Assembly: GCF_028641065.1 (NCBI RefSeq)
Contig: NC_073393.1
Location: 38,688,001-38,752,000, forward strand
Length of the DNA stretch: 64,000 bases
DNA from: Leucoraja erinacea
Lineage: Eukaryota
Direction: 5' to 3'
Shown: positions 31,120 to 61,101 of the stretch, one piece after another
Layout of the letters: every line of letters starts with the position of its first letter
Numbering within the stretch: position 1 is the first letter of the stretch
The notes under the pieces: generated by a model
Told to the model about the DNA's origin: nothing
Seen by the model: only the letters and a program-made list of their open reading frames with translations
Databases searched by the model: none
Position numbers and translations under genes: made by a program

Positions 31120-32598
31120 GTAAGCACAAGTTCATTACATGGGACATGTTTTCAAGCTTTTGTATCATCAGGCAACAAAATATACACCCTTGAAAGCATA
31201 TACCACCCGATTCCATCCCTGCTGTTATCAGACTCTTGATTGTGCCTCTCGTATGTTAAGAATGAATTCTCGATCACCCAATCTATGTCGCTGAGCCCTT
31301 GCATGATTTTTATGTGCATTTTCTATGTGGTTGTAACATTGTCTTCGGTACTCGTTTCCTTTCTCTTATTTTGCGTTACCTATTGTACGCGCATGGACAC
31401 AAAGTGCTGGCATAACTCAGTAGATCAAGCAGCATCTCAGGCGAACATTGATGGGTCTATCCCCATCTGCAGATATCATACACTGTTGTATGCATGTTTG
31501 GTTTGATTGTCGTCGTGTATGGACGATTTACCTGGTTTTAGCGTTCAAAGCAAGTTTTCACTATCTCAGCACACGGGACAAGAATAAACCAATACCAATA
31601 ATCATAGTGAAAAGTGTAATTAGAAAATGTCAGTAGCTTGGATTAGAAATGCGTAGACAAGTATAAAAAAATCTCGATTCTTAGAGGTCAGGGCACCATC
31701 AGATTTGATCATTGCTCGCTGTTCAGTTCGATGAATTGGCAATTGGGGTTGGAAAGGTTAGCTGTCATATTCTAGACTAATGATCAGTGACTGGTGGAAA
31801 GTGCATGTGTGTATGGATGTCAGGCTTGCAGGGTTGGATTCACCCATGGTTTCCCTCTCTTCTACATCCCTTTCTAGAAACATTTGAGTTAAGTGCTTCA
31901 GTGCAGCCAGAAAGGTCGGAAGACTGCATGGTTGTTGATTTAAATGAACATTTTATCATTTACTTTTGAATGTGAGATTTGAGAAAATGACTTTAAGGTT
32001 CTCACTGAATTAAATCATGTTGGTGCTGGAGGAGGTGTTTGCAAAATCATAATAACAGTGGTGGAAACTGAGGCAAAGTCTATGTGAGAAAAGGAGACTG
32101 GGTCGGGTGGAAGATTTGGGAATTTGACTACACAGTGGAATACAAAATGGTATTTATTCAGATGCCAGTTTATCTCAATAAATGGTTACCAAGTAATTGC
32201 ACTAGTCCCGTGGACAGTGCTGAAATAAGGGCCTAAAGTTTTTCACAACCCATCAGCTTCTAGCTGTTTGAGGAGCATGTGTACGATGCGGAAATGTGTA
32301 TTTATTTCTTCAGAAAAGCTTACACCTCTCATGGTCTGGAATAATTGATATATATTTTCATTTTCCATTCTGCTGCGGGGTTGTATTTTGATTTTACAAG
32401 CAGCTTTTCTGCATCTTTTTCTCCTTCCCCATCTCTCATATACACGCCCCCCATCTCCCAGCTCGCCTGTTTTATGCAAGTTTCACGTATCTAACTGCAG
32501 AATGAATTATTTTTTTTAGCTGGTGTTGAGGAAGTGCTTGTGTGTGCTTTCTACCACTAGGTGTCAGAATGACCTGCATTTGTCATTTTCCTTTGCAG

Positions 32599-32664
32599 GA
32601 TTACAGCATTGATGAAGATGCAGCATTACATGCAGCAATAGCACTTTCACTCACTGAGAAATGA
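32599..32664 (+). CDS. RNF166: RNF166 exon 6 coding part (UIM) and stop
   Basis: ctttgcag| acceptor; DYSIDEDAALHAAIALSLTEK-TGA. The six exons sum to 705 nt in frame. Confidence 0.96.
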   Translation, partial: DYSIDEDAALHAAIALSLTEK

Positions 32665-32694
32665 AACCGCTATCTTCACAGAGATCTCAGTGGA

Positions 32695-32880
32695 CATCCT
32701 TTGTACAGGTTAACTTCACTCTCCTGGGCAAAGGGTACCTGTTTCCCAGCATTCTGAAAGGTACTGTCATCCTCTGCACAAGTCACCTTCTCTCATCTGA
32801 GCAAACGCAACGTCCTCTCCCAGCATTCAGGAAGGTGCTGTCATCCTTTGCACAGGTCACTTCTTCATATGTACAGAGGA
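32695..32880 (+). repeat. Degenerate 73-74 bp tandem repeat just after the RNF166 stop
   Basis: Units start catcctYtgYacaRgt at 32695, 32768 and 32842. cccagcattc.g.aaggt.ctgt recurs. Confidence 0.7.
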
Positions 32881-35800
32881 AGAGGAAATGTCTGGCCCAC
32901 TTGCAAGTATTCCATAGGGCGCTCTCATGCTCAATGCGTTAGCTTTTCGCACTTGAGCACAGATCATGCTCACTTGCCCAGCATCCTGTAGGGTTATAGT
33001 AGCTCAGCCAGTCACAGCCTCTACTCAAATCTTTTTTATAAAGAACACTCGTGTATGTTAAGATGTATTGGGTACAACTTTACTCACATATTTCTACATA
33101 GTTGGGGAAGGGGATCTTTAATTTTAAGTTTATTTTTAATTTGGAGGTCATTGTGGATTTTAAAATATGAAAGGATATTTTAAAAACAGTTACAGGTGGG
33201 AATAGAAAAGTTGAGAACTGAATGAAAGAATCTTTCATGTACCATGTGTGTTATTTTCCTGCAAATCAGAGCTCGAATTTTACAGCTAATAGATTGTAAA
33301 TTTAGTGTAAACAGGGTTGAGGGGTGCATACCCATGACATGAATTTGTCTCTATTTAGCTAACTGCCATGGAAAACATCTTCCTTCTTAAATGCTTAGCC
33401 TCCTAACTGTTATCTCAATGAAAAATATGGTCGGCAGTATTGGTTGATTACCTCAGATGTTGCAGTATTACTGAATGGTGTTGAACCCAATGATTTGCAA
33501 AGTGCCAGATATTTAGATCTTTTATGTATGGAAGCCTGTTTATTCTTAAATATTTATTTAAGTTGTAACTCTGTGTTACCTCTTGCTCTTGAATGAAGAT
33601 ATCAGCAGTTTCCAAGATTTCAATTGTCACTATTTGCCCAATCCTGCTACAAAAGATGGAGTTTATGAATACCAATGAAGCTCTTGGGAACTGCTGTAAA
33701 ACTCTCATGTTGCAGGAACCTGCAGACGTTAATTCTGGATATATTGGATAACTGAAATGCCTTTTGTTTGCCATGTCATTCGTGGGTACTGCAACTATAT
33801 TTTTGATTATATGACTGTTTTGGCTTTTGGCGATATCTGGGAATGCCTGTTCATATTCACAGCCCTTATCCCAAGTCCAAGATGAATTGGTACTGAAAGT
33901 CCTTAGACTTGGAAGCTGCATGCATGATTAAATGAACAGTAACATTTGCATCATATCAATGTCCTCTGGAATGAATAGCACGTATAGGTGGATCTTTCTT
34001 TAAAGAGCACCTACAGCATTTTATTGCCAACAATCGCTGAGAGAGACTGTATTTGGGAGCACAGAAGATACTTTCAACATGTCTGGCAACCTCCCAAAAC
34101 ACTAAGGATCTTAATCTGATAGACCAAAATGTGTAGCACAAGGTCTCGCACAAAACCAGCATGGACCTTGGGGCAGTACTGTGCCTTGTCAAAGATCAGG
34201 CAATTTTATCCCACAATATGTATCCAATATGTCCAGTTTTTAATGGGTGTAATTCTTATAGTACTTCCAATAAAATGTATCAAAACTTGTAATCTGCCCA
34301 ATTTTTTTTATCAGTCCAAGCAAATATCCTTTCTTAAAATATTGGCAATTACTGTTCAAGTAATGGAATTAATTGAATGATTGTTTCAGATCAATCCATC
34401 AAATAAACCACTTTTAAATAATCACCAATTTTCCACAGGAAATTAAAACAATGTTGATCTACCTAATTTTATGCAGATGAGGCCAAGTGCCTTAACCACA
34501 GGAGGGGAAACGGTCAGAAAATAAACCCAAATTTAAATTGTATTTATTAGCAGATGCTTCAATCCAGTTTTAATTCTATTCGTGAAGGAGATCCGACTGA
34601 CTTTTATTTTACTTCTTAGAGATGCGATGCACATAGCCCGGTTGCTTAAAGAATGAAAACCGTATTCTGGAGGCCAGACTTTAACTATCTGAATGCTATC
34701 AGCAAATGACCAAAGTATACAGTTCTTCAAAAGCTCAAAAGTGAATGGAAAGCTTTGGTTTATGCAAAAAGCGTGCATGGATGTGGATGCACTTGTGTGA
34801 ATGTGTACTGTTTCATCACCAATGTCAGCAGATGTACTAATGTTTTATCTCACCAAATATAAATGTAAAATTAAAGACAGACATAAAAACAATAGAGCAT
34901 AAAATCAGAGGGTGCATAAAATAGCTGGCAGACTAAACCCAACTTTGGATAGGAACAATCAAAAGCAACCCAGACATGCCTGAGATAATGTCTGTCAAAT
35001 ATTTAATTCTGAAAAATGGTTCCTCTGAAACCTTCCAAAGCTCGGAGACTCGTCTCAGATGCATATATTTTTTATATCTCTGGTAAGGACAGGTTTCACA
35101 GTTCATTCCAAAATGTCAGGGTGTAGATTTCTGAGGCAGAACTTCAGTGGAGGCTCAGAGGGGAAAGCTTTCAGCTGTTGTTAAACCTTAATCTTTAGGG
35201 AGCAAAGAATAGCTTTAATTTTGGGTAAAACTGTTGCTATGACATTCTTGTGGATAACCAACTCTGATTCTTTTCCCGTCATGGTCTGAAGGAACTAGCT
35301 AAGGAAATCATTGTGCATATCTGAGAATAATTGGTTCGTGTTGTATGCTCTTGTAATATTGCTCCAAAGGATATGGGTGAACCTCTGACATTGCATCTTT
35401 ATCCCATGAGATAATGTATTTTATTCTCATCGTGTTATCATTATTACCATTTGAGTTATTTCTACAACATTCTATATGCTTTATTTTCCAAACATGGACA
35501 CATCCATGTTAATAGCTCATAATTCCTCCAGATTTTCCTTCCTCTTTGGCGATGTGATGGAAATGAATGGAGAAAGCTTCATTGTCACAGTTGATATCAT
35601 ATTTCCAACATTGTGAATGTGATATGGACAGGCACTGAAGAATATTGCCAGGATCCCTCTATCGTTATTCTTCGCAACAGGAATGTTACAAAAAATTTGA
35701 CACAAAGGCTATATCTACTCCAACTCACATTGTTATCCATATTAGTGCAACAAGGGTGTATGGTCTTGTTCAATTAATGAATGCGGTATTCGCTGTTGAT

Positions 35801-36452
35801 TTTGTGATAATTCATATGTTTGAATACTACGTTAAGATTGCATTACCAGAGAAAATTCATAATTATTGGGTTTATTTTCAGTAATCCTGTACCCTTACAC
35901 CATTATATTACAAGGACATAACTTGTTACTTTCATTTTCTTAACAGAGCTTGCATTGAAATGGGTATTAAATATAACTTGATAATGCATTCCTTTTAATA
36001 TATATTTATATATATATCAGTACCAACTTGTATTTGGACGATGCCTTAATGTAGCAAAGTACCCCATGGTATTTCATGCTACTACTGTGCTGCTATTTAA
36101 CAATGTTTTTGGTTGTTCTCGGTTAATGTAAAAGGAACAATGACAAATTCTAGTTCTGGTCTTATCTGCAAATTAAAAATTTAATTCCAAAGTTCAAGGA
36201 AGAGGAAGCTATTAAATAATTATTGTAGATGTTTAAAATGGCTTAAGAAGATTGAATATACTGCACAAACTCATCCGATGAATATCCTGGTGGTTAGCAA
36301 TTGCTTTAGCCAAGCCAATTCCATATGCTGCTGTGAGAGGACATAAGGGGGGGATTGCGTTTCATATATGTAGAAACATTCCAGCTGTAGCAGAGATGAA
36401 TGGCCATGCAGTCCTTTATTGAACTTTGATCTGATTCTGAAAGTCACGCATA

Positions 36453-37190
36453 GGGTGATTTCACGAAAGGTCACTGGAGCGTAGATCCGCACCCACGTGA
36501 CCGAAAATCTGAAGTGGAGTACATGCTATACATCTGGTACATGTTAGTGAATGGGGAAACACGCACTTTCACACCCGTTAAAAACATCGAAAACGGCCAG
36601 TTTTTGAGCTGCAATTTACTGTGCCAGTCGGGGTGACCGTGAGGCACAGCTACCTAAATTTACAGTCCAAAAAAAAGATAGAAACTAAGGTAAATTCAAG
36701 AGGGAGCTGAAGGTGCAAATCCAGCGGAAATGACCAGCGGACATTTGCCGTGGAGATTTAAAGATCCAAAATATCGGGAATTATCGCGTTTGCTCGCTGC
36801 ATTTCATCAAAAAAGTCAATAATGCCTTGCTTTTGATGAAATGCGGTGAGCAAATGCGATAATTCCCGATATTTTGGATCTTTAAATCTCCACGGCAAAT
36901 GTCCGCTGGTCATTTCCGCTGGATTTGCACCTTCAGCTCCCTCTTGAATTTACCTTAGTTTCTATCTTTTTTTTGGACTGTAAATTTAGGTAGCTGTGCC
37001 TCACGGTCACCCCGACTGGCACAGTAAATTGCAGCTCAAAAACTGGCCGTTTTTGATGTTTTTGACGGGTGTGAAAGTGCGTGTTTTCCCATTCACTAAC
37101 ATGTACCGGATGTATAGCATGTACTCCACTTCAGATTTTCGGTCACGTGGGTGCGGATCTACGCTCCCGTGACCTTTCGTGAAATCACCC
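36453..37190. mobile_element. Foldback MITE with two 360-bp inverted arms, an 18-bp spacer and TA flanks
   Basis: Arms 36453-36812 and 36831-37190 match at 352/360 positions with no indels. TA at 36451-36452 and 37191-37192. Confidence 0.92.
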
Positions 37191-40100
37191 TATACTTAAT
37201 TTTTTTTTACTGCTTTGGGGATTACTATATCTTAATCGGAGTCACTGCTGATATGTCCTAAACCCATCCTGCATGAAAGTCAACACTTTGGATGATCTTT
37301 GAATGACTGCCTAACATGTGAGTTCTATATGGAAGCCAGTAATTATTTTCAAACTCTATAATCCACTATCATTCCTTGATATTACATTTTACTGACTCCT
37401 GACTAATCTGGAAAAGATTTTGTAGCTCAATTTCCATCTCAATTTCTCTCCAGTTCATAACCTGTCTTTGCAGTTGTAACAACCTTGTTGCTTTTGCAGG
37501 CTGTGCACGTGCAGCAGATATGTTGATAAATGTTCTTATGCTTATGCAGGGTCATACATTTCCACGAAGAATCCTCTTTCAGGACCAAATCTTGAAAATA
37601 TGTACACTTTTTTGACCACTATAAATGCAAGAGTTTTTTTCTATGATGTTAATGAGAATAGGAGATGAATCTTAAACCTACATGACTCCCACTAACAACT
37701 GGGAGGTGACATCACTTTATTTCTATTTTAATTCCAGTTCAAAATGCCAATGGTGTGTTTGTATTCAAGGAATCAGTTTATCATGGCTAGATTTTTTTCA
37801 TTGTGCAGATGGTGTTTTAAAGATTAGAGAACATATGAGGGTAAATGTAAGTAAGTTTATTTCCACTTGTGGAAGTAGTTTAAATCCATTCCCATGCTTA
37901 GTTTCTGCCAAACTAATACTGTGATGCATGAAATTTGAGGTCTTGGATTTGCAAAGTTTCGGCTAGTAAATCGTAACTGTATAACTAACTGATTAGAGAA
38001 ATACAATGTGGTAAGGAGACCTCACAGAATGAAATTCGAGCTCTGAAAACATTGTTTTCTTTTCTACCTTCTTCTTGCCTTTTACATTCTATTAATGTGT
38101 AATGTCATCTCGAGCCCATTCCTTGCTGGGTGGTGAATCTTTTGTTATCTCCTTATCGTTTTGAAATAATGTGACTCTTGTATGTTCAAGGGGGAACACG
38201 AATAACCAGTTAGATTCACGCGAGTCAGATAAATCATTTTAGCAGGTTTCTTCCACATTAAGAAGCGGCTGAACCAAACAAAAAATGAAGCAAGTGCTGA
38301 GTGAATATATTTTTAGAGCTACAGACAGGGTAGTTAGTGATTGGGAAGAACGGTTAAACCTACATTTAAAAACCATTGGGAGAAACTTGCTATAATTTTA
38401 AATGCCTACACTCTTGTTGCGGTGATAAATGAGTGAAAGGAAGCAAAACCTTGAGGCATTTGTAATTAATAACAGGTCAGCTGAGATCCATCACATGCAG
38501 CACATCAGTGAATAAGAAGTAATCAGAGATATCGACAGTCTCAGCTGTGGATAGACTTAGTTTCAAGGCATGGAATGAAAATTTCAGTTACAATAAATCT
38601 TGAAGGTTTTTATGTTGTTTAGTACAGAAGGTTTTCGGACGAATTTCTGTAGTGCTTCACAGTAAGGGAGAATTTGACAATCTAGGTGATTATCAACATT
38701 TGTACTTGGATGGCAGGAACCAACTGGCCAGGTTGGTGAATACAGCTGGCCAGGTATTTAAAACTCAGACTCTCAAGAATTGTTGGATTTTGGTTTGAAG
38801 TGGAATAACAGAAGGGAACATGTAACATTAACAGTTACAAAAAAAACCCCCATTCATTCTGCTCCATAGTTTAATCCCCAACCAACTGAGCACAAGTGAA
38901 AATTTCCAGCTCATCATTTCAAAAAAAAGGTGTTACGGTTATATTAGAGTGTGAAAACGATTTAATTAATGTGGAGATCAGTGTTTGAAACTGTTGAGAT
39001 CACCAGTAGAACTTGCTGGTGGCTTGCAGTTTGTATTTGCAAATATACAGGTGTACAAGATAAGTTATATTTCTTCTATATCTTAATTTATTAAAGTTTA
39101 AAATTTATATTTAATTTCTTTTGGGCATTACCTTTTTGGCTTGCAGCTCACTAGCAAAAATAAATGTGGGTATTCGTTACCAATAACGCTTTGCTAGCTG
39201 CTCATCATCATCTTCAACGCTGTAGATTGTATCTGAATAGGAATTGTAATGTTAAAAAGATTCTTCCCATTGTTTTGACCTTTCAATTAGACATGCAATT
39301 TTGAATTTTAAATTGGCTTCAATTATACTTTAAGTTTTACAAATGTTTTGTCTTCTAATGTAAGCCAAGTTCCAATACACAAGCATGTAAAAATAGTTAA
39401 AGTTATCCATTGGGGACTGGCCAATGATGATAAACGAGCTGTGGATTTCACTGAGGCAAGGCCACTGAGCTAATGTTGGTGTGATTTCCTCACTTACTCC
39501 GGCTCAGTAGTAATCCTCTGACTGCAGAGCTGTGAGATGCAGAGTCCACATTCTTCCATCAAGCAGCAAAAAAATGATTATAGAAATCTTATGCTAAACT
39601 GTAAAGCAAACCTTGTCTAATTTTCTAATATTTTTAATGTACTACAGTGCACATTTTCAAACTAGTTTTTTAGGAATTGTTTGTTGCTGTGTGAAGTTAG
39701 TGTGTACATTTGGACAATTTGTAAATAAAATTTTGATTGTTCAGCAACTCATCTGTTTCATTTTTATTACTTAATCCCGAGATATTTTAACTACAACTGT
39801 CCTAATTAAGCAAAGATTTTACTGCTTGGAAACGTGGATATTCTGACTTAATTGTCATTAGTGATAGGAGCAGAATTAGGCCATTCGTTCAGGGTGGGAG
39901 ATTGCAACCTTCATGTGGTCCGCTCTGTTTCGACAAATGCAATCAACCTGGTGTGCACAATCAAGTAAGGTCAAATAGAACAAGTTGTCCGACAACTTTA
40001 GGCTGTGCACGCCATACGCAAGAAGAAGAAGAAGGCCATTCGTTCCATCAAGTCCACTCTGCCATTCAATCATGGCTCATCTGTCTCTCCCTCCGAACCC

Positions 40101-40261
40101 CATTCTCCTGCCTTTGCCCTTTGCCTTGTCACTTATCATATTTGGCATTTCTGCTTCCTGTAAAGGCTCAAATTAAACCAAGATATTTGAATATGTGACT
40201 GCCATGATCCACTAGCAACCACATGCATTTGTAAAGCATCTATTAATAAAATGAAACATTA

Positions 40262-40319
40262 TGGGCCTGCACCACTTAGGCAATTTTTCAGGCGACTGCC
40301 GGCTACTTGCACGCGCATG

Positions 40320-44830: not shown

Positions 44831-45961
44831 CTTAACATCAGCCACAGGGACTGGTGGTAAAGGCACACCTAAGAATAACAGGGCTGGATTACTGGGTGAG
44901 CAGCTGGACAAAGTTGTTGAGGCAGACATAAAAACAACATTTAAAAAACATTTGGACAGGTGCATGGATAGGAAATGTTTCAGTGGATATGAGTCAAACA
45001 CATGCAGGAATGAGCGTGGATAGACATCTTGGTTAGCATGTGTGTGTTAGGCCAACTGGCCTATTTCATCATTGGATGATGATCATTCTATGACTTTAAA
45101 TATCTCTCAGCACTTTATTTCGCTGTAGCTATCTTTAGCGGATCTATTTTTATTATTCGTATGCAAGTATCTACAAAATGATATGTAAAAGAAAACTAGT
45201 CAAAAGATATAAATATCTTCCAAAAGCATTGAAAATACATTTCATTCCATTCAAAGGTACAAAGGTTCATTTATTGTCACATACACCAATTGGTGCAGTG
45301 AAATTCCAGTTGCCTTTGCAGCACATTAATAAGAAGACAACATAACAATGTAAAGGAATTTAGCATTAAACATAAAAAACATCCCCCCACAATGGTTCCC
45401 ACTGTGAGGGAAGGCACAAAGTCCAGTCCCCATCCCCTTGTTCACCCATAGTCGGGCCTATTGAGGCTTCATGTAATTCCCTTTGTCATGTATCTGTACA
45501 CTTTAATGACTCGGTTGTAATCATGTAATCTGCTGACTAGTTAACGTGCAACAAAAGCTTCCCACTGTATCTCGGTACACGTGACGATAAACTAAACTAA
45601 ACCAATGAACAATTTAAAAATAAATATAAAATACGGAACAGAAAACAGAAAACATTCTCACCCAGAGAGTTGTGAATCTGTGGAATTCTCTGCCTCAGAA
45701 GGCATTCTCTGGATGCTTTCAAGAACGAGTTAGAGCTCTTAAAGATGGCGGAGTCAAGGGATATGGGGAGAAGGCAAGAACAAGGTACTAATTGTGATGA
45801 TGATCAGCCATGGTCATAGTGAATGGCAGTGCTGGCTCGAAGGGCCTCATGGCCTACTCCTGCACCTATTGTCTATTGAAGTGCTGGACTGGAACTGTAG
45901 CAGAGGTCAGATTCACCAGCATCTATGCAGGATGCTGTGTTTTGGGTCCCATCGGGACTCT

Positions 45962-46490
45962 TAGAAACATAAGAAACATAGAAATTAGGTGCAGGAGTAG
46001 GCCATTCGGCCCTTCGAGCCTGCACCGCCATTCAATATGATCATGGCTGATCATCCAACTCAGTATCCCGTACCTGCCTTCTCTCCATACCCCCTGATCC
46101 CCTTAGCCACAAGGGCCCATCTGCACTCCCTCTATGGCAATAATGTCCTTCTCTCCATTTGGAGACAAAACTGCAGTAGAACCTCTCCGCTCCTATACTC
46201 AAATCCTTATGCAATGAAAGCTAACATACCATTCGCTTTCTTTACTGCCTGCTGCACCTGCATGCCTACCTTCAATGACTGGTGTACCATGACACCCAGG
46301 TCTCGCTGCATCTCCCCCTTTCCCAATCGGCCACCATTTACATCTATAACTAACCCTCTTAAATATAGCCAATGAACTGGCCTCATTGTGAAAAGGAACT
46401 ACCCTGCCAGCCAGTTGTATCCACATCAATACTGCAGAGTTGCCAGAGATTCACCACACTCTCTGTCGTGAAAAAAGTTCTTCTCATCTC
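45962..46490 (-). mobile_element. Same young CR1 family, internally scrambled copy
   Basis: The tail is essentially identical to 51467-51615. An upstream LINE segment is intercalated at about 46121-46340. Confidence 0.8.
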
Positions 46491-47571: not shown

Positions 47572-48713
47572 GTAAGAACATCACTGTGATTTCTTTCACA
47601 TTGTTATTATTAGCTGTGCAAATAAACTGTATTTCTTTGACTTTTAAACATTTAGTTTGGAGTATAATGTACTTGTTCGCTTCTGTTGAGACAGAATGTT
47701 CTCATTAACTTTGTCAATTTCATGTAATTGCACTGCCTTGATATTGGCGCAGTGATGTGCGCGCTTTCCCCGTCACAATCGAAGAGTAAAAATTCTTCTA
47801 GGTAGAATCACTGAGTAAATAGTTTTCAGAGCGCGGTTTATTAGATAAAGGGCGATTCAGCAGGTGCATCGACTTGCATGCGGGTCCCCATTCTTATTCA
47901 CAGCATCGCCCTCCAGCACCAGGCTGGTATTCGTCTTAAATAAGCAACAAGCATGTTTGGGCTGCTTTCTGAAGTATTCTGTTTGCTGCACCCTACTAAA
48001 ACAAAAACCGCTTCACTGTAAAGCAAACTTCTTTCTTCAGAAGTCCCCCGTGTCGTTTATTTTTAGTGGCTTGTTTTCTGTTCCATACTAGACTTCCCAT
48101 TTTGGCTTGTGGGGACCACTCTGAGGTACGTTGGTCTCTTATTTTAAGTGAATCATTTCCTCTCGAATTTTTTTGCTAATTGCCCAGGGTTTTTACCTCA
48201 CAAAAGGGAAGGCAGCACAGCCTGGTTTTCGCATTGGGATAGATGAATTGCAAAGGGGAAGTGGTGGTGGTGGTGGTGGTGGAAGTGTGAATGACAAAGG
48301 GAGTTAACTGTTTGGTACAAAAATCAATGCATGCAAGCAACGAGTGGTGGATAGATCCATTCCTTTTGTAAAGATATTCGGGATTTGGATTCGGGATTTA
48401 AAGAGACTGACAAACAGCATTTGATTTGATCTTTCAATGGTCATCAATTTCCTCATGGGGAAAAGTGTTTAGTTTTAGCACAAAGAATTGTACTTCTGTA
48501 TTCTCTATTTTTACCTGTTAAAGAAGACTTTCACTACCATTCATTTAAAAATACTTCATTGCTGGGACTGGAAAACTTGTTTAAACACAATGATTAGGTG
48601 AAATAATATTATTTGATCTGGGTGTTAATTATGGGTAAGGCAATCCTTTTTCATGCTTCACCAGTTAGTATTTCTATCGACTTGCACGAGTTGAGACTCT
48701 GCTTTCTTTGCAG

Positions 48714-49352
48714 CCTCGGCTATTTTGCCATATCTATACGAGGGATTGACATTTCCACTGATGGCACCGCCTGAAGTTCTCGCCCCCATCAGTTGTGACC
48801 CACCAGCACTGTGGGACAGGGCTCCAATCAGTCTCCGAATGTGCCTGCCCCTGCCCCTGCCCCTGGATGCTGAGATTGGAACAGAAGCATCATTCAGCAG
48901 CCAGCCAGGCCTGCAGATCAGTGTGAAGGAATGCCTGGCTGTCAGGGACAGCAACACCCCACTAAGGAACACTGTGAATGACCTCAGCCTGTCCCTTTCC
49001 AAAAGAGCCAAGAGAAGGGAGACAAACAATGGCACATTTAAAGGAGACGGTGAAACCCAGGAGAAAACCCTTGAGGTTGAAAGTGCTGTTGAAGCAATCC
49101 TGGAGAGGTTTGAGTGTTTTCATTGTCACAAGGCATACAATACTTCATCTGGTCTTTCTAAACACAGACAGCTGCATTGTGAATCACAGACTACAAAATA
49201 TTTTAACTGCAAGTATTGTGATAAGGAATATGTCAGCCTGGGTGCATTGAAGATGCACATAAGGACTCACACTCTGCCCTGTGTCTGCAAAATCTGTGGC
49301 AAAGCCTTCTCGAGACCATGGCTCCTCCAGGGGCACATCAGAACACATACCG
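48714..49352 (+). CDS. SNAI3: SNAI3 exon 2 (639 bp; central region and zinc fingers 1-3)
   Basis: ttctttgcag| acceptor; ...[24 protein letters not shown]...[48 protein letters not shown]; G|GTAAGT donor. Confidence 0.94.
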
Positions 49353-50975
49353 GTAAGTACAAATAAAGCATTAGGGTCGGGGAAAGGGGTGAAAAACCAC
49401 CAAGTTCCCACTGCTTATTATTCAGTGACCTGCTGAAAAGTTCATCAATGAAAATGAGGATGAGAACAGGATGGAGGCGCAGCAGTGATGTCTTCTTTAC
49501 CACCGGCACTGCCGCTTGCCTCCCCTTGCGCTTGTATCCTTGCCTCAAAGCAACATTGCCCACAGCACTCACTGTGTGGCTCGTACATACAGTCTGACAA
49601 AGGGCTGCCCTGAAGGGAAACACTGGGGAGGCAAAAATGATTGGATATAAAGTACATGTTAATTAAATTAAATGTTATCTCTACACTTATTGTGCTGCAG
49701 GAATTTTGCATTAACACCATCAGGGTTTCCAATTTAATAAAAAAAGACTATTAAAGTGTAGATTTAACCTTTTGCATAAGGGAAAACAAAATGTAACCTT
49801 TTTCATTTGTGTAAGTAGGAACTGAAGATCCTGGTTTAAACCAAAGATACTAGAGGATGTAGTATCTCCTCTGGTATCTTTGGTTTAAACCAAAGATAGA
49901 CACAAAAAGCTGGAGTAACTCCGTGGGACAGGCAGCATATCTGGAGAGAAGGAATGAGTGACGTTTCATGTTGAGACGGGTCAGGTCTGAAGAAGAGTCT
50001 CGACCCGAAATGTCACACATTCCTTCTCTCCAGAGATGCTGCCTGTCCCGCTGAGTTACTCCAGATTTTTAGTGTCTGTCTTTTTATTTCAACAAAATAG
50101 TCCTTTCCTAAGACGGACTCAGAAATATATCGGTGTACTTCAATGCTACATGATATTACTCTGCTGGAACCATAATATGTTTGAAGCAATGGGCATTGCG
50201 GTTATGTTCCTCTATCATTCTGCTATGAAATCTCCAAGTTCCCCACATGGATTACCATTATCCAGCTGTGAATCGCCATGTAGGATAGATAGCAAACACC
50301 TCATTTACGTAATACAGTTCGTAGCAAAAGCTGCAATTGTGATTTGCTGAAAATTAAGTGAATCTTAATTTGAGTTTTTGTTTTGTTTTTAACTATTTCG
50401 ATGACCTTTGAAGTTGCCCAAAGTACTGCTTGCTGGCAGACCAGCACAGAACTCTCATGTCATGCTATTTGCAAAGCAGGTCCAATAGCCAACATACCTG
50501 CTGTAAGGATTGCTGGAGACATCTGGCTAAATTCTGAAGATGGAGCTCCAATATTATTAATGCCTGACTGGTGATAGAAAATGCTCTAGATACAGTAGAA
50601 CACTGACATTTTCTCTGGATTGAATTTAATTGAATGTCCATGCATATGGAATTCAATTAGGATTTCAAAATATTTGCCACTCAAAAGCAAATGGCTTTAT
50701 AAAGTGCATGATATAGTATACAGTTTATAGTGGTGTTTTAGCAAATTATTTCACAGGTTTTATTATAGTTTGTTTATTTACGTATTTGTTAAACATAACA
50801 GGGGATTGGGCTTTCACCAATGGTGTACTGTGGGATGGGGTATGGTTATTTTTCTGAGTCAAAAGAAAATCAATGTTGTGATGTCCATATCCTGGTTTCT
50901 TTTTAAATGGTACATCCTTCTTGCTAAGGGTGATGTGAAACATTCCTCCCTGATTTATATTTTTGCCCTTTACAG

Positions 50976-51157
50976 GGGAGAAGCCGTTTGCCTGTCCACA
51001 CTGCAGCAGGGCTTTTGCAGATCGCTCAAACCTGCGTGCACATCTGCAGACACACTCGGATGTGAAGAGATATCATTGCAAGAGCTGCTCAAAGACTTTC
51101 TCCAGAATGTCTCTTCTATCCAAACACAAGGAAGCCGGATGCTGCCCCTTATCTTGA
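50976..51157 (+). CDS. SNAI3: SNAI3 exon 3 (zinc fingers 4-5 and stop)
   Basis: tttacag| acceptor; [63 protein letters not shown]. Total CDS is 897 nt. Confidence 0.95.
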
Positions 51158-51466
51158 TGCAAACTCTGTGATATTATTAAATTCTGATTTGATAGCAGGC
51201 TGGAGTTTTGCAAAGTGTTGAGGGCCTATTATTTTAGCATTATATCATTGAACATGGTTGCGAAATGCTGTACTTGTTGGTTTGTTAACTCTCAAAATAA
51301 TTTCACCCTAATGGAGACCTGCAGATGTAATCGGCTAAAGCTCTACCAATGTTGACTCTACTAGTTATGACATAAAACCATTTTGTCCATGGAACATAGA
51401 GTGGTACTACTGCACAAGAAGAGGCCCTTTGGCCCACACTGCCTGTGCTGAACATGCTGCCAAGAC

Positions 51467-52023
51467 ATAGAAACATAGAAATTAGGTGCAGGAGTAGGCC
51501 ATTCGGCCCTTCGAGCCTGCACCGCCATTCAATATGATCATGGCTGATCATCCAACTCAGTATCCCGTACCTGCCTTCTCTCCATACCCTCTGATCCCCT
51601 TAGCCACAAGGGCCACATCTAACTCCCTCTTAAATATAGCCAATGAACTGGCCTCGAATACCCTCTGCGGCAGAGAGTTCCAGAGATTCACCACTCTCTG
51701 TGTGAAAAAAGTTCTTCTCATCTCGGTTTTAAAGGATTTCCCCCTTATCCTTAAGCTGTGACCCCTTGTCCTGGACTTCCCCAACATCGGGAGCAATCTT
51801 CCTGCATCTAGCCTGTCCAACCCCTTAAGAATTTTGTAAGTTTCTATAAGATCCCCCCTCAATCTCCTAAATTCTAGAGAGTATAAACCAAGTCTATCCA
51901 GTCTTTCTTCATAAGACAGTCCTGACATCCCAGGAATCAGTCTGGTGAACCTTCTCTGCACTCCCTCTATGGCAATAATGTCCTTCCTCGGATTTGGAGA
52001 CCAAAACTGTACGCAATACTCCA
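51467..52023 (-). mobile_element. Young CR1/HER1-like LINE 3' fragment nested in an older CR1
   Basis: Open RT-tail frame LEYCVQFWSP...QRRFTRLIPG...RRLRGDLIETYK...RVVNLWNSLP. (catagaaa)n tail. Flanked by a ccaagac duplication. Confidence 0.9.
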
Positions 52024-57950: not shown

Positions 57951-58582
57951 AGGATTTGAGTATAGGAGCAGGGAGGTTCTACTGCAGTTGTACAGGGTCT
58001 TAGTGAGACCACACCTGGAGTATTGCGTACAGTTTTGGTCTCCTAATCTGAGGAAAGACATTATTGCCATAGAGGGAGTGCAGAGATGGTTCACCAGACT
58101 GATTCCTGGGATGTCAGGACTTTCATATGAAGAAAGACTGGATAGACTTGGTTTGTACTCGCTAGAATTTAGAAGATTGAGGGGGGATCTTATAGAAACT
58201 TACAAAATTCTTAAGGGGTTGGACAGGCTAGATGCAGCAAGATTGTTCCCTATGTTGGGGAAGTCCAGAACAAGGGGTCACAGTTTAAGGATAAGGGGGA
58301 AATCTTTTAGGACCGAGATGAGGAAAACCTTTTTCACACAGAAAGTGGTGAATCTCTGGAATTCTCTGCCGCAGAAGGTAGTTGAGGCCACAGTTCATTG
58401 GCTATATTTAAGAGGTAGTTAGATGTGGCCCTTGTGGCTAAAGGGATCAGGGGGTATGGAGAGAAGGCAGGAACAGGATACTGAGTTGGATGATCAGCCA
58501 TGATCATATTGAATGGCGGTGCAGGCTCGAAGGGCCGAATGGCCTACTCCTGCACCTAATTTCTATGTTTCTATGTTTCTAT
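57951..58582 (+). mobile_element. Young CR1/HER1-like LINE 3' fragment inserted into a SINE head
   Basis: LLQLYRVLVRPHLEYCVQFWSP...; nearly identical to 51467-52023; (tttctatg)n tail. Confidence 0.9.
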
Positions 58583-59970: not shown

Positions 59971-61101
59971 CCATTCCTTCTCTCCAGAGAACCTGCCTGG
60001 CCCGCTGAGTTACTCCAGCCTATCTTTGGTTTAAACCACGGCATCTGCAGTTCCCTCCTACACATTCCACCTCACCCGCTGAGTTACTCCAGCATTTTGT
60101 GTCTATCTTTGGTGTTTGAAAAGCTGACACCAGCCATCAATGAAGTTGAAGGTGTTCATTTTTACTTGTTTTGCTTTGAGCAATACTGGTTTGAGGGGAC
60201 AGGGGATCAAACTGCCAAGGATAGGAGCGTGAGGTGGGATTACAGGGAAAGAAGGCAGGGGGCTCAGAATTAGGAAATAAATGGGGAGAAGTGAACTCTT
60301 AAGTGAGAAGTTGTATTGCTTGTACCCAATAATCCCTATATAACCTGGTATGGTGTGAGGCCACAGTTATTATAAGGACTACAAATCGACAGAGACCTGC
60401 TACTGAAGTGGGAGTGTGTCCTGTCAGACTGAAATCTTGTTTCCAATGAGTGAAAGCACTCCATGAAAACTGTACAACCCTGAACAGTGGAAATTGTATT
60501 ATTTATGAATGCACTTCCATTGTGCCCAACCCATCCGTTAGTATGTTTAAGAAGGAACTGCAGATGCTGGAAAATCGAAGGTAGACAAAAATGCTGGAGA
60601 AACTCAGCAGGTGAGGCAGCACCTATAGAGCGAAGGAAATAGGCAACGTTTCTTCGAAGGGTTTCGGCCCGAAACGTTGCCTATTTCCTTCGCTCCATAG
60701 ATGCTGCCCCATCCGTTGGTATAACTTGCTTTTCATTTATAGCTATATAGGTACAATTGCTTCAATGTGGGCTGACAGAGGTTTTTGCTCATCTTGTTGT
60801 GCTCACTTTTTTTCCTTTGCATATTTACACTGGTTCCATTGGAAGTGCCCTACGTCTGGTCACCATCCTACCCTCATCTAAACTCTTTCTTTTAAAACTA
60901 AATCTTTGAGCAAACCCCTGTTTTAGCAACCACTTGTTGTTGGTATTATTTCCTTTGTTTCTGTCACCTTAAAGAACCTTCTTACATTAATCACACTTAA
61001 AACTATTGGTGACCACTCGACCAATATTTCAAAACTACTTAGACCAATGATACAGTCTGTCATTTCAACCATTATCTCATTTATCCTCCTTTGTTCATTA
61101 A

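Follow-up and report, generated by a model that had tools for sequence, protein, structure and literature searches.

A young palindromic transposon copy with 360-bp arms behind the RNF166 stop codon, and the strand polarity of its arm mismatches

The RNF166 locus and its palindromic element

The window, i.e., the whole stretch of 64,000 nucleotides that was analysed and to whose positions all coordinates refer, carries RNF166 on its plus strand, which confirmed both the gene identity and the sense strand given in the original prediction. Exon 2 is 100% identical to sawshark RNF166, its top match, and the sawshark protein maps to six plus-strand exons starting at about 3641, 24228, 27029, 29375, 31012, and 32599, with RING, C2HC, Di19, and UIM parts. 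Because of this identity, and since that protein covers all six exons, we infer a cartilaginous-fish host. A Snail-family zinc-finger gene lies downstream of RNF166, also on the plus strand (48695-49366 and 50969-51070; C2H2 matches), and is presumably snai3, by human synteny.

As summarized in Table 1, the last coding exon of RNF166 is followed by a stretch that probably represents a long 3′ UTR. The palindromic element is located in it at a distance of 3.8 kb from the stop codon; one poly(A) signal (proximal) precedes the element, and another (distal) follows it at 2.5 kb. Repeats cover 4.7% and 0% of the UTR stretch on the two sides of the element, compared with 19% of the gene body and 24% of the downstream region, and single-copy DNA depth was 22-43 in each bin from 32400 to 39707 not touching the element. 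Extremely high-copy SINE-like repeats, with a summed depth of up to 2e6, were noted at 39854-40200, about 100 bases past the distal signal.

Table 1. Features of the 3′ part of RNF166 and of the palindromic element (window positions).
Feature	Position	Strand	Remarks
RNF166 last coding exon (UIM) with TGA stop	32599..32664	+	stop at 32662-32664
Probable long 3′ UTR; AT-rich, almost without other repeats	32665..39750	+	continuity as one RNA presumed
Proximal AATAAA, probable short 3′ end excluding the element	34269..34274	+	organism D polyA RNA peak at 33966-34226 (depth 3.48), next bin 0.18
Left TA, probable target-site duplication	36451..36452	+	from sequence; an AT offset by one base is an equal alternative
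Left arm of palindromic element	36453..36812	.	begins GGGTGATTTC; 18 CpG, o/e 1.0
Uninterrupted Watson-Crick stretch, 198 bp	36590..36787	.	pairs with 36856-37053
18-nt spacer (hairpin loop)	36813..36830	.	36829 is G vs. A in about 99% of family depth
Right arm of palindromic element	36831..37190	.	ends GAAATCACCC
Right TA, probable target-site duplication	37191..37192	+	from sequence
Distal AATAAA followed by a U-rich tract; probable long 3′ end including the element	39724..39729	+	plus-strand read peaks just upstream in organisms A and D

The element is part of an inverted repeat (arms 36440-36812 and 36831-37203) that is larger than any other in the window; in it, clean pairing begins at 36450/37193 and proceeds inward, so that block 36450-36812 pairs with 36831-37193 across a spacer of 18 nt. 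Within the element proper (36453..37190, paired positions adding up to 73643) the arms are 360 bp each, differ by 8 mismatches (97.8% identity), and account for 98% of the length. Hairpin folding compared with shuffled sequence gave a z score of -67. The longest stop-free frame within the element among all six frames has 65 codons, and no second copy was found in the 64-kb window.

We mapped four public sequencing runs on 32400-40200, with organism A being the species of the window and organism D a second species. For organism A, summed contig depth, which does not equal copy number, was 4e4-3.6e5 over the element and 22-43 in the flanks; for organism D, in which cover of the flanks was patchy, the element reached 2e3-9e4. 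In both species the depth exceeds that of the flanks thousands-fold, and the transposon family is plainly very large. The 360-bp terminal inverted repeats, the lack of coding capacity, and the high copy number of the family bear out the predicted identity of a foldback MITE. As the CpG observed/expected ratio is 1.0 in the arms vs. 0.3 in the flanks, the copy appears to be young. In a second individual of organism A, which has at least 11 flank substitutions relative to the window, contigs from the flanks enter both termini and end about 25 bases inside, and the insertion is therefore not private to the assembly. An assembly artefact was ruled out, as the contigs of this independent individual run into the element from both unique flanks. 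No empty insertion site was present among the 15 listed of 270 joints. We thus assigned the element, as a young copy, to a palindromic family of non-autonomous DNA transposons that is present at very high copy number in two species.

The termini read TA/GGG...CCC/TA or, alternatively, AT/AGGG...CCCT/AT. With its probable TA duplication in an ATAT target, its lack of coding capacity, and its very high copy number, the element resembles the TA-targeting MITEs of Tc1/mariner type; these, however, have CAG/CTC-type ends in place of GGG...CCC, and they differ from an element made up almost wholly of its arms. A matching transposase was not found. hAT elements are flanked by an 8-bp duplication around TAG...CTA ends, and a hAT origin was rejected, since the respective 8-bp flanks differ (GTCACGCA vs. 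TACTTAAT). A Crypton was rejected as well: according to the available text of PMC3212892, Cryptons have no TIRs and carry 4-6-bp terminal direct repeats, while long TIRs are present here and the nearest 4-bp direct repeat is CATA vs. TATA. For Harbinger elements, the accessible part of PMC4482050 gives a TWA target duplication, and for the ISL2EU group of the PHIS superfamily a duplication of AT in the conserved target A/AT/T. No 3-bp TWA duplication of the PIF/Harbinger kind is formed by the flanks examined (ATA vs. TAT, or CAT vs. ATA). An AT duplication like that of ISL2EU can be read if the element starts with AGGG, yet the adjacent bases in this one copy are C and A (flanks C-AT and AT-A), unlike A/AT/T.

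In architecture only, the element is similar to the palindromic Harbinger repeats of Xenopus tropicalis and to zebrafish ANGEL, a non-autonomous DNA element; all are gene-less, high-copy, and fold their arms over a short loop, giving dsRNA when transcribed through. Both the frog and the fish elements are self-folding and are described as major ADAR targets in the available parts of PMC5625713 and PMC8096273, respectively. They differ from the element studied here, whose single arms reach 360 bp (the frog element has about 220 bp in total) and whose target duplication has 2 bp instead of the 3-bp TWA.

Searches with the element gave no Rfam match at gathering score in 32400-40300, and an exact scan with a terminal 22-mer gave 0 matches in metagenome contigs and 0 in prokaryote genomes. 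Hits of a terminal 17-mer (3 viral loci) and of an internal 19-mer (8 metagenome loci) were dismissed as chance, as all 11 match over 17-27 bases only. Viral contigs L001 and L002, both with a 17-base chance match, are identical to each other across 2229 bases and apparently represent a phage tRNA cluster. No description of this transposon family, or of G-U polarity in the arms of vertebrate MITEs, was found in the literature covered, outside of which lie most subscription journals and Repbase.

Arm mismatches and their polarity

The eight arm mismatches were found where they had been predicted, at left-arm positions 36475, 36535, 36556, 36579, 36589, 36788, 36796, and 36798. On the plus strand seven of the eight are G/T, five of them in CpG context, and the remaining one (36475/37168) is T/C. 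The perfect core that had been placed between the mismatches was recovered as the longest Watson-Crick run; a mismatch-free gap of 198 bp has a chance probability of 0.015 with 8 random mismatches and of 0.057 with 6. For seven of seven transitions in one direction we recomputed a two-sided P of 0.0156, in agreement with the earlier figure of about 1/64. This polarity test is post hoc, as the pattern was chosen after the fact. An 11-bp interval holds three of these G/T sites; merging them into one event leaves 5/5 (P 0.06), and dropping them leaves 4/4 (P 0.125). Given 50 elements with 7 transitions each, the chance of seeing at least one seven-of-seven case is 0.54. Under a 60% strand bias P for such polarity is still 0.03. 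The G-U polarity of the arm mismatches is real but based on seven sites.

The comparison with the family at mismatch sites covers 40 of the 330 differences to sequencing contigs. The window copy has G at 37064 and 36845, where A makes up 98.5-100% of the family depth in both species, and loop base 36829 follows suit (Table 1); these three Gs are near-private plus-strand A>G changes. At 36796 the family is mixed, with A in 36% and 83% of the depth, and this mismatch may be inherited. The sorting of contigs between mirror positions suggests CpG C>T changes at 36535, 36855, and 37054 and an A>G change at 36556: left-arm contig depth is down to 50 at 36532-36533; the right arm received 289k vs. 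253k near 36556 in organism A, and 18k vs. 4k in organism D; and the left arm received 898k vs. 24k near the loop. Thus, the case in which the same mismatches are already found in the family consensus, raised earlier as one that would speak against a special polarity, does not apply at two of the seven G/T sites, where nearly all of the family depth has the Watson-Crick partner. Most of the arm mismatches are probably not ancestral. With the loop base included, all eight transitions run in the C>T or A>G direction on the plus strand (P 0.008, again post hoc). Letters common to both arms but unlike the bulk of the family were noted at 36730, 36734, and 36668/36975; taken together with the 198-bp gap (P 0.015-0.06), they point to subfamily structure or arm-to-arm copying.

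As strand-biased mutation had been put forward to account for the polarity, we scored substitutions in old repeats against the majority letters of five repeat families (a sixth seed family gave no consensus columns). Inside the gene, 68 G-U-making vs. 70 A-C-making changes were counted (C>T 50/614 vs. G>A 49/622; A>G 18/507 vs. T>C 21/582), which lends no support to a gene-wide bias; outside the gene the counts were 45 vs. 68 (P 0.04). In old repeats outside 3640-39750, G>A on the plus strand (51/669) was about twice as frequent as C>T (25/633; P 0.006), an excess that possibly reflects an unrecognised minus-strand transcript, replication bias, or chance. Inverted repeat pairs with both copies inside the gene showed 110 G-T vs. 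92 A-C mismatches (P 0.23), and pairs downstream of the gene 97 vs. 122. The G-T share differs between the two sets with a Fisher P of 0.04, the pairs being non-independent as copies are shared. Published strand biases differ in direction among vertebrates: the available text of PMC2927911, in which no cartilaginous fish is included, gives A>G above T>C for mammalian genes, and A>G below T>C together with C>T above G>A for teleosts, the latter also in teleost introns on the non-template strand.

The reading we favour, at a probability of roughly 0.6, is that of a neutral young copy whose plus-strand polarity arose by small-number chance. A non-autonomous DNA transposon, with long terminal arms making up nearly its whole length, would have been mobilised by a transposase encoded elsewhere and would have moved, at a fairly recent time, into a TA located downstream of the RNF166 stop; the hairpin would be a by-product of the family architecture. 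The arm differences would mostly be point mutations of this copy: two A>G changes that the data show directly, plus one further A>G and about four CpG C>T changes that are probable. The common plus-strand direction of all seven would most likely be chance among the many elements and windows scanned. Two results speak against chance: counting the loop base (8/8) makes the case for it somewhat worse, and the G-T share of the non-independent repeat pairs is higher in the gene than downstream.

Rather doubtful, in our estimate, is strand-specific mutagenesis or repair at the foldback, by which the plus strand, exposed or self-paired in transcription or replication, would have its C, 5mC, and A deaminated. 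In a variant of this explanation, hairpin-templated correction would remove A-C mismatches more readily than G-T ones. In that case, the family would bear this polarity as a mutational signature, linked to host transcription or to the orientation of the element. Such a process would account for eight transitions of deamination type on one strand, three of them seen as A>G by direct comparison with the family, and the arm-shared non-family letters and the long clean stretch hint at arm-to-arm copying; the C>T excess on the non-template strand of teleost introns is in line with it. Yet the old repeats of the same gene are unbiased, A>G falls below T>C in teleosts, and the DNA strands fold near-equally (-468 vs. 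-457 kcal/mol), with the polarity itself read from one full copy only. Unlikely as well is the more far-reaching proposal that the main RNF166 message carries the 97.8%-matched hairpin, toggled by poly(A) choice, and that the arms of the family were homogenised by arm-to-arm copying, the residual differences recording strand-specific deamination of C and A on the sense strand of the foldback DNA. If this were true, sibling copies would measure the process and would test how an interferon-bearing vertebrate tolerates near-perfect self dsRNA. The family provides a large panel for strand-specific mutation in palindromes, in which each copy holds its own internal comparison.

Transcription across the element

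RNA was assessed in a single-cell run of organism A, of which about 1% was read, and a polyA run of organism D, of which about 6% was read; both libraries look 3′-biased. Plus-strand single-cell reads of organism A reached a depth of 22.8 in 39447-39707, just upstream of the distal AATAAA, and weaker signal was present at 34227-34748, 38142-38402, and 39186-39446. In organism D, polyA reads formed the proximal peak listed in Table 1 and a distal one at 39186-39707 (4.91 and 3.98); nearly all of the first mates were on the minus strand, which corresponds to plus-strand RNA in most stranded libraries. The peaks in both organisms fit a pair of poly(A) sites that flank the element. Along the repeat-poor stretch of about 7 kb, organism A favours the distal site and organism D uses both. 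Internal priming at an A7 run at 39568 is a less likely source of the distal peak, given the depth of 0.29 in 39186-39446 vs. 22.8 in 39447-39707.

The claim that the element is transcribed in RNF166 sense RNA is probable in view of the plus-strand peak just upstream of the distal AATAAA in two species; the part of it that concerns a single message was not matched by reads, as none in either RNA run joins the stop codon, the element, and the distal end. Depth of RNA over unique sequence was zero in both runs for 35010-36314, 37359-38141, and the last coding exon, and the nearest upstream signal in organism D was 0.07 at 34749-35009. Among mapped RNA reads on the element, 90% and 98% continue into unlike sequence and hence derive mostly from other copies. 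On balance, some mature RNF166 RNA probably contains the element, with a smaller, though appreciable, chance that it is absent from mature mRNA.

It could also be proposed that RNF166 ends at the proximal site, or that the hairpin is spliced or cleaved out and the distal peak is a separate plus-strand transcript, so that the element lies outside the mature RNF166 mRNA and the polarity has no RNA meaning. This explanation, which we hold to be improbable as the main account, is in accord with the zero RNA depth over the two unique intervals flanking the element and with organism D, in which the proximal site is used about as much as the distal one. It also agrees with the near-absence of such duplexes from mRNA: the available part of PMC7006430 reports only 4 duplexes of >300 bp and >96% identity, judged unreliable, in the annotated mRNAs of 49 organisms, and this lowers the prior for the element being in mature mRNA. 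However, with 3′-biased libraries and the small fractions of the runs read, the coding exon is likewise at zero; moreover, plus-strand reads extend back to 38142, less than 1 kb from the element, and the scarcity of repeats is unbroken between the stop codon and the distal signal. The explanation concerns location only and can coexist with chance as the source of the mismatches.

Under the favoured reading of a neutral copy, a transcript polyadenylated at the proximal site would skip the element, and one that extends to the distal site would probably carry a hairpin of about 360 bp. Editing of that hairpin by ADAR would be expected from the behaviour of the frog and zebrafish palindromic elements, and the host would tolerate the hairpin rather than maintain it. 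The arrangement would resemble the inverted Alu pairs of mammalian 3′ UTRs in being repeat-derived dsRNA that is kept in or left out by poly(A) choice. Unlike these, it consists of one self-complementary DNA element, and its arm identity and 18-nt loop make it much tighter than typical Alu pairs.

Folding, editing, and other inverted repeats

The predicted hairpin energy was -710 kcal/mol for the plus strand and -683 kcal/mol for the minus strand, a difference of 3.8%, and the 198-bp core is kept in both orientations. These values do not sustain the suggestion that selection preserves dsRNA in the sense RNA. A>G places amounted to 23/267 in RNA vs. 7/170 in DNA for organism A (P 0.08) and to 10/161 vs. 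8/121 for organism D (P about 1), pooled with the right-end repeats and coming mostly from other copies. No excess of A>G editing in RNA over DNA was seen in either organism in these counts, dominated as they are by other copies. Abundant editing is described for elephant shark brain in the accessible part of PMC5625713. The proposed tie between the hairpin and an immune role of RNF166 found no backing at this locus: the role in interferon induction comes from mammalian work (available text of PMC9424811).

That selection keeps a long dsRNA in the RNF166 message as a module for ADAR, Staufen, Dicer, or immune sensors, with A-C changes purged and G-U changes passed, is very unlikely: the seven-of-seven polarity in the sense direction, the position of the element as the only young repeat of the repeat-poor 7-kb stretch, its presence in a second individual, and the location of most unique-sequence reads of organism A at the distal 3′ end are what it could explain, but it needs many purged mutations, each worth <1% of the hairpin energy, it leaves a T-C mismatch tolerated in a young copy of a family with very many siblings, no editing excess accompanies it, and the genome-wide trend, as given in the available part of PMC7006430, is selection against long near-perfect duplexes in mRNA.

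As a transposon copy, the element is ordinary. The remaining interest lies in a near-perfect 360-bp hairpin that may sit in a mature mRNA; if it is present in exported mRNA, it would offer a natural setting for testing ADAR and MDA5 tolerance in a cartilaginous fish.

Other inverted repeats were observed in the window. Local palindromes at 2755-2923, 45754-46097, 49832-49892, 49892-50083, and 60612-60711 are apparently common short repeats in head-to-head arrangement, with G-T:A-C counts of 0:0, 4:8, 2:0, 4:1, and 1:3, respectively. Two LINE-like 3′ fragments form a further inverted pair (51465-52023 and 58016-58576), the copies being 94% identical and located about 6 kb apart.
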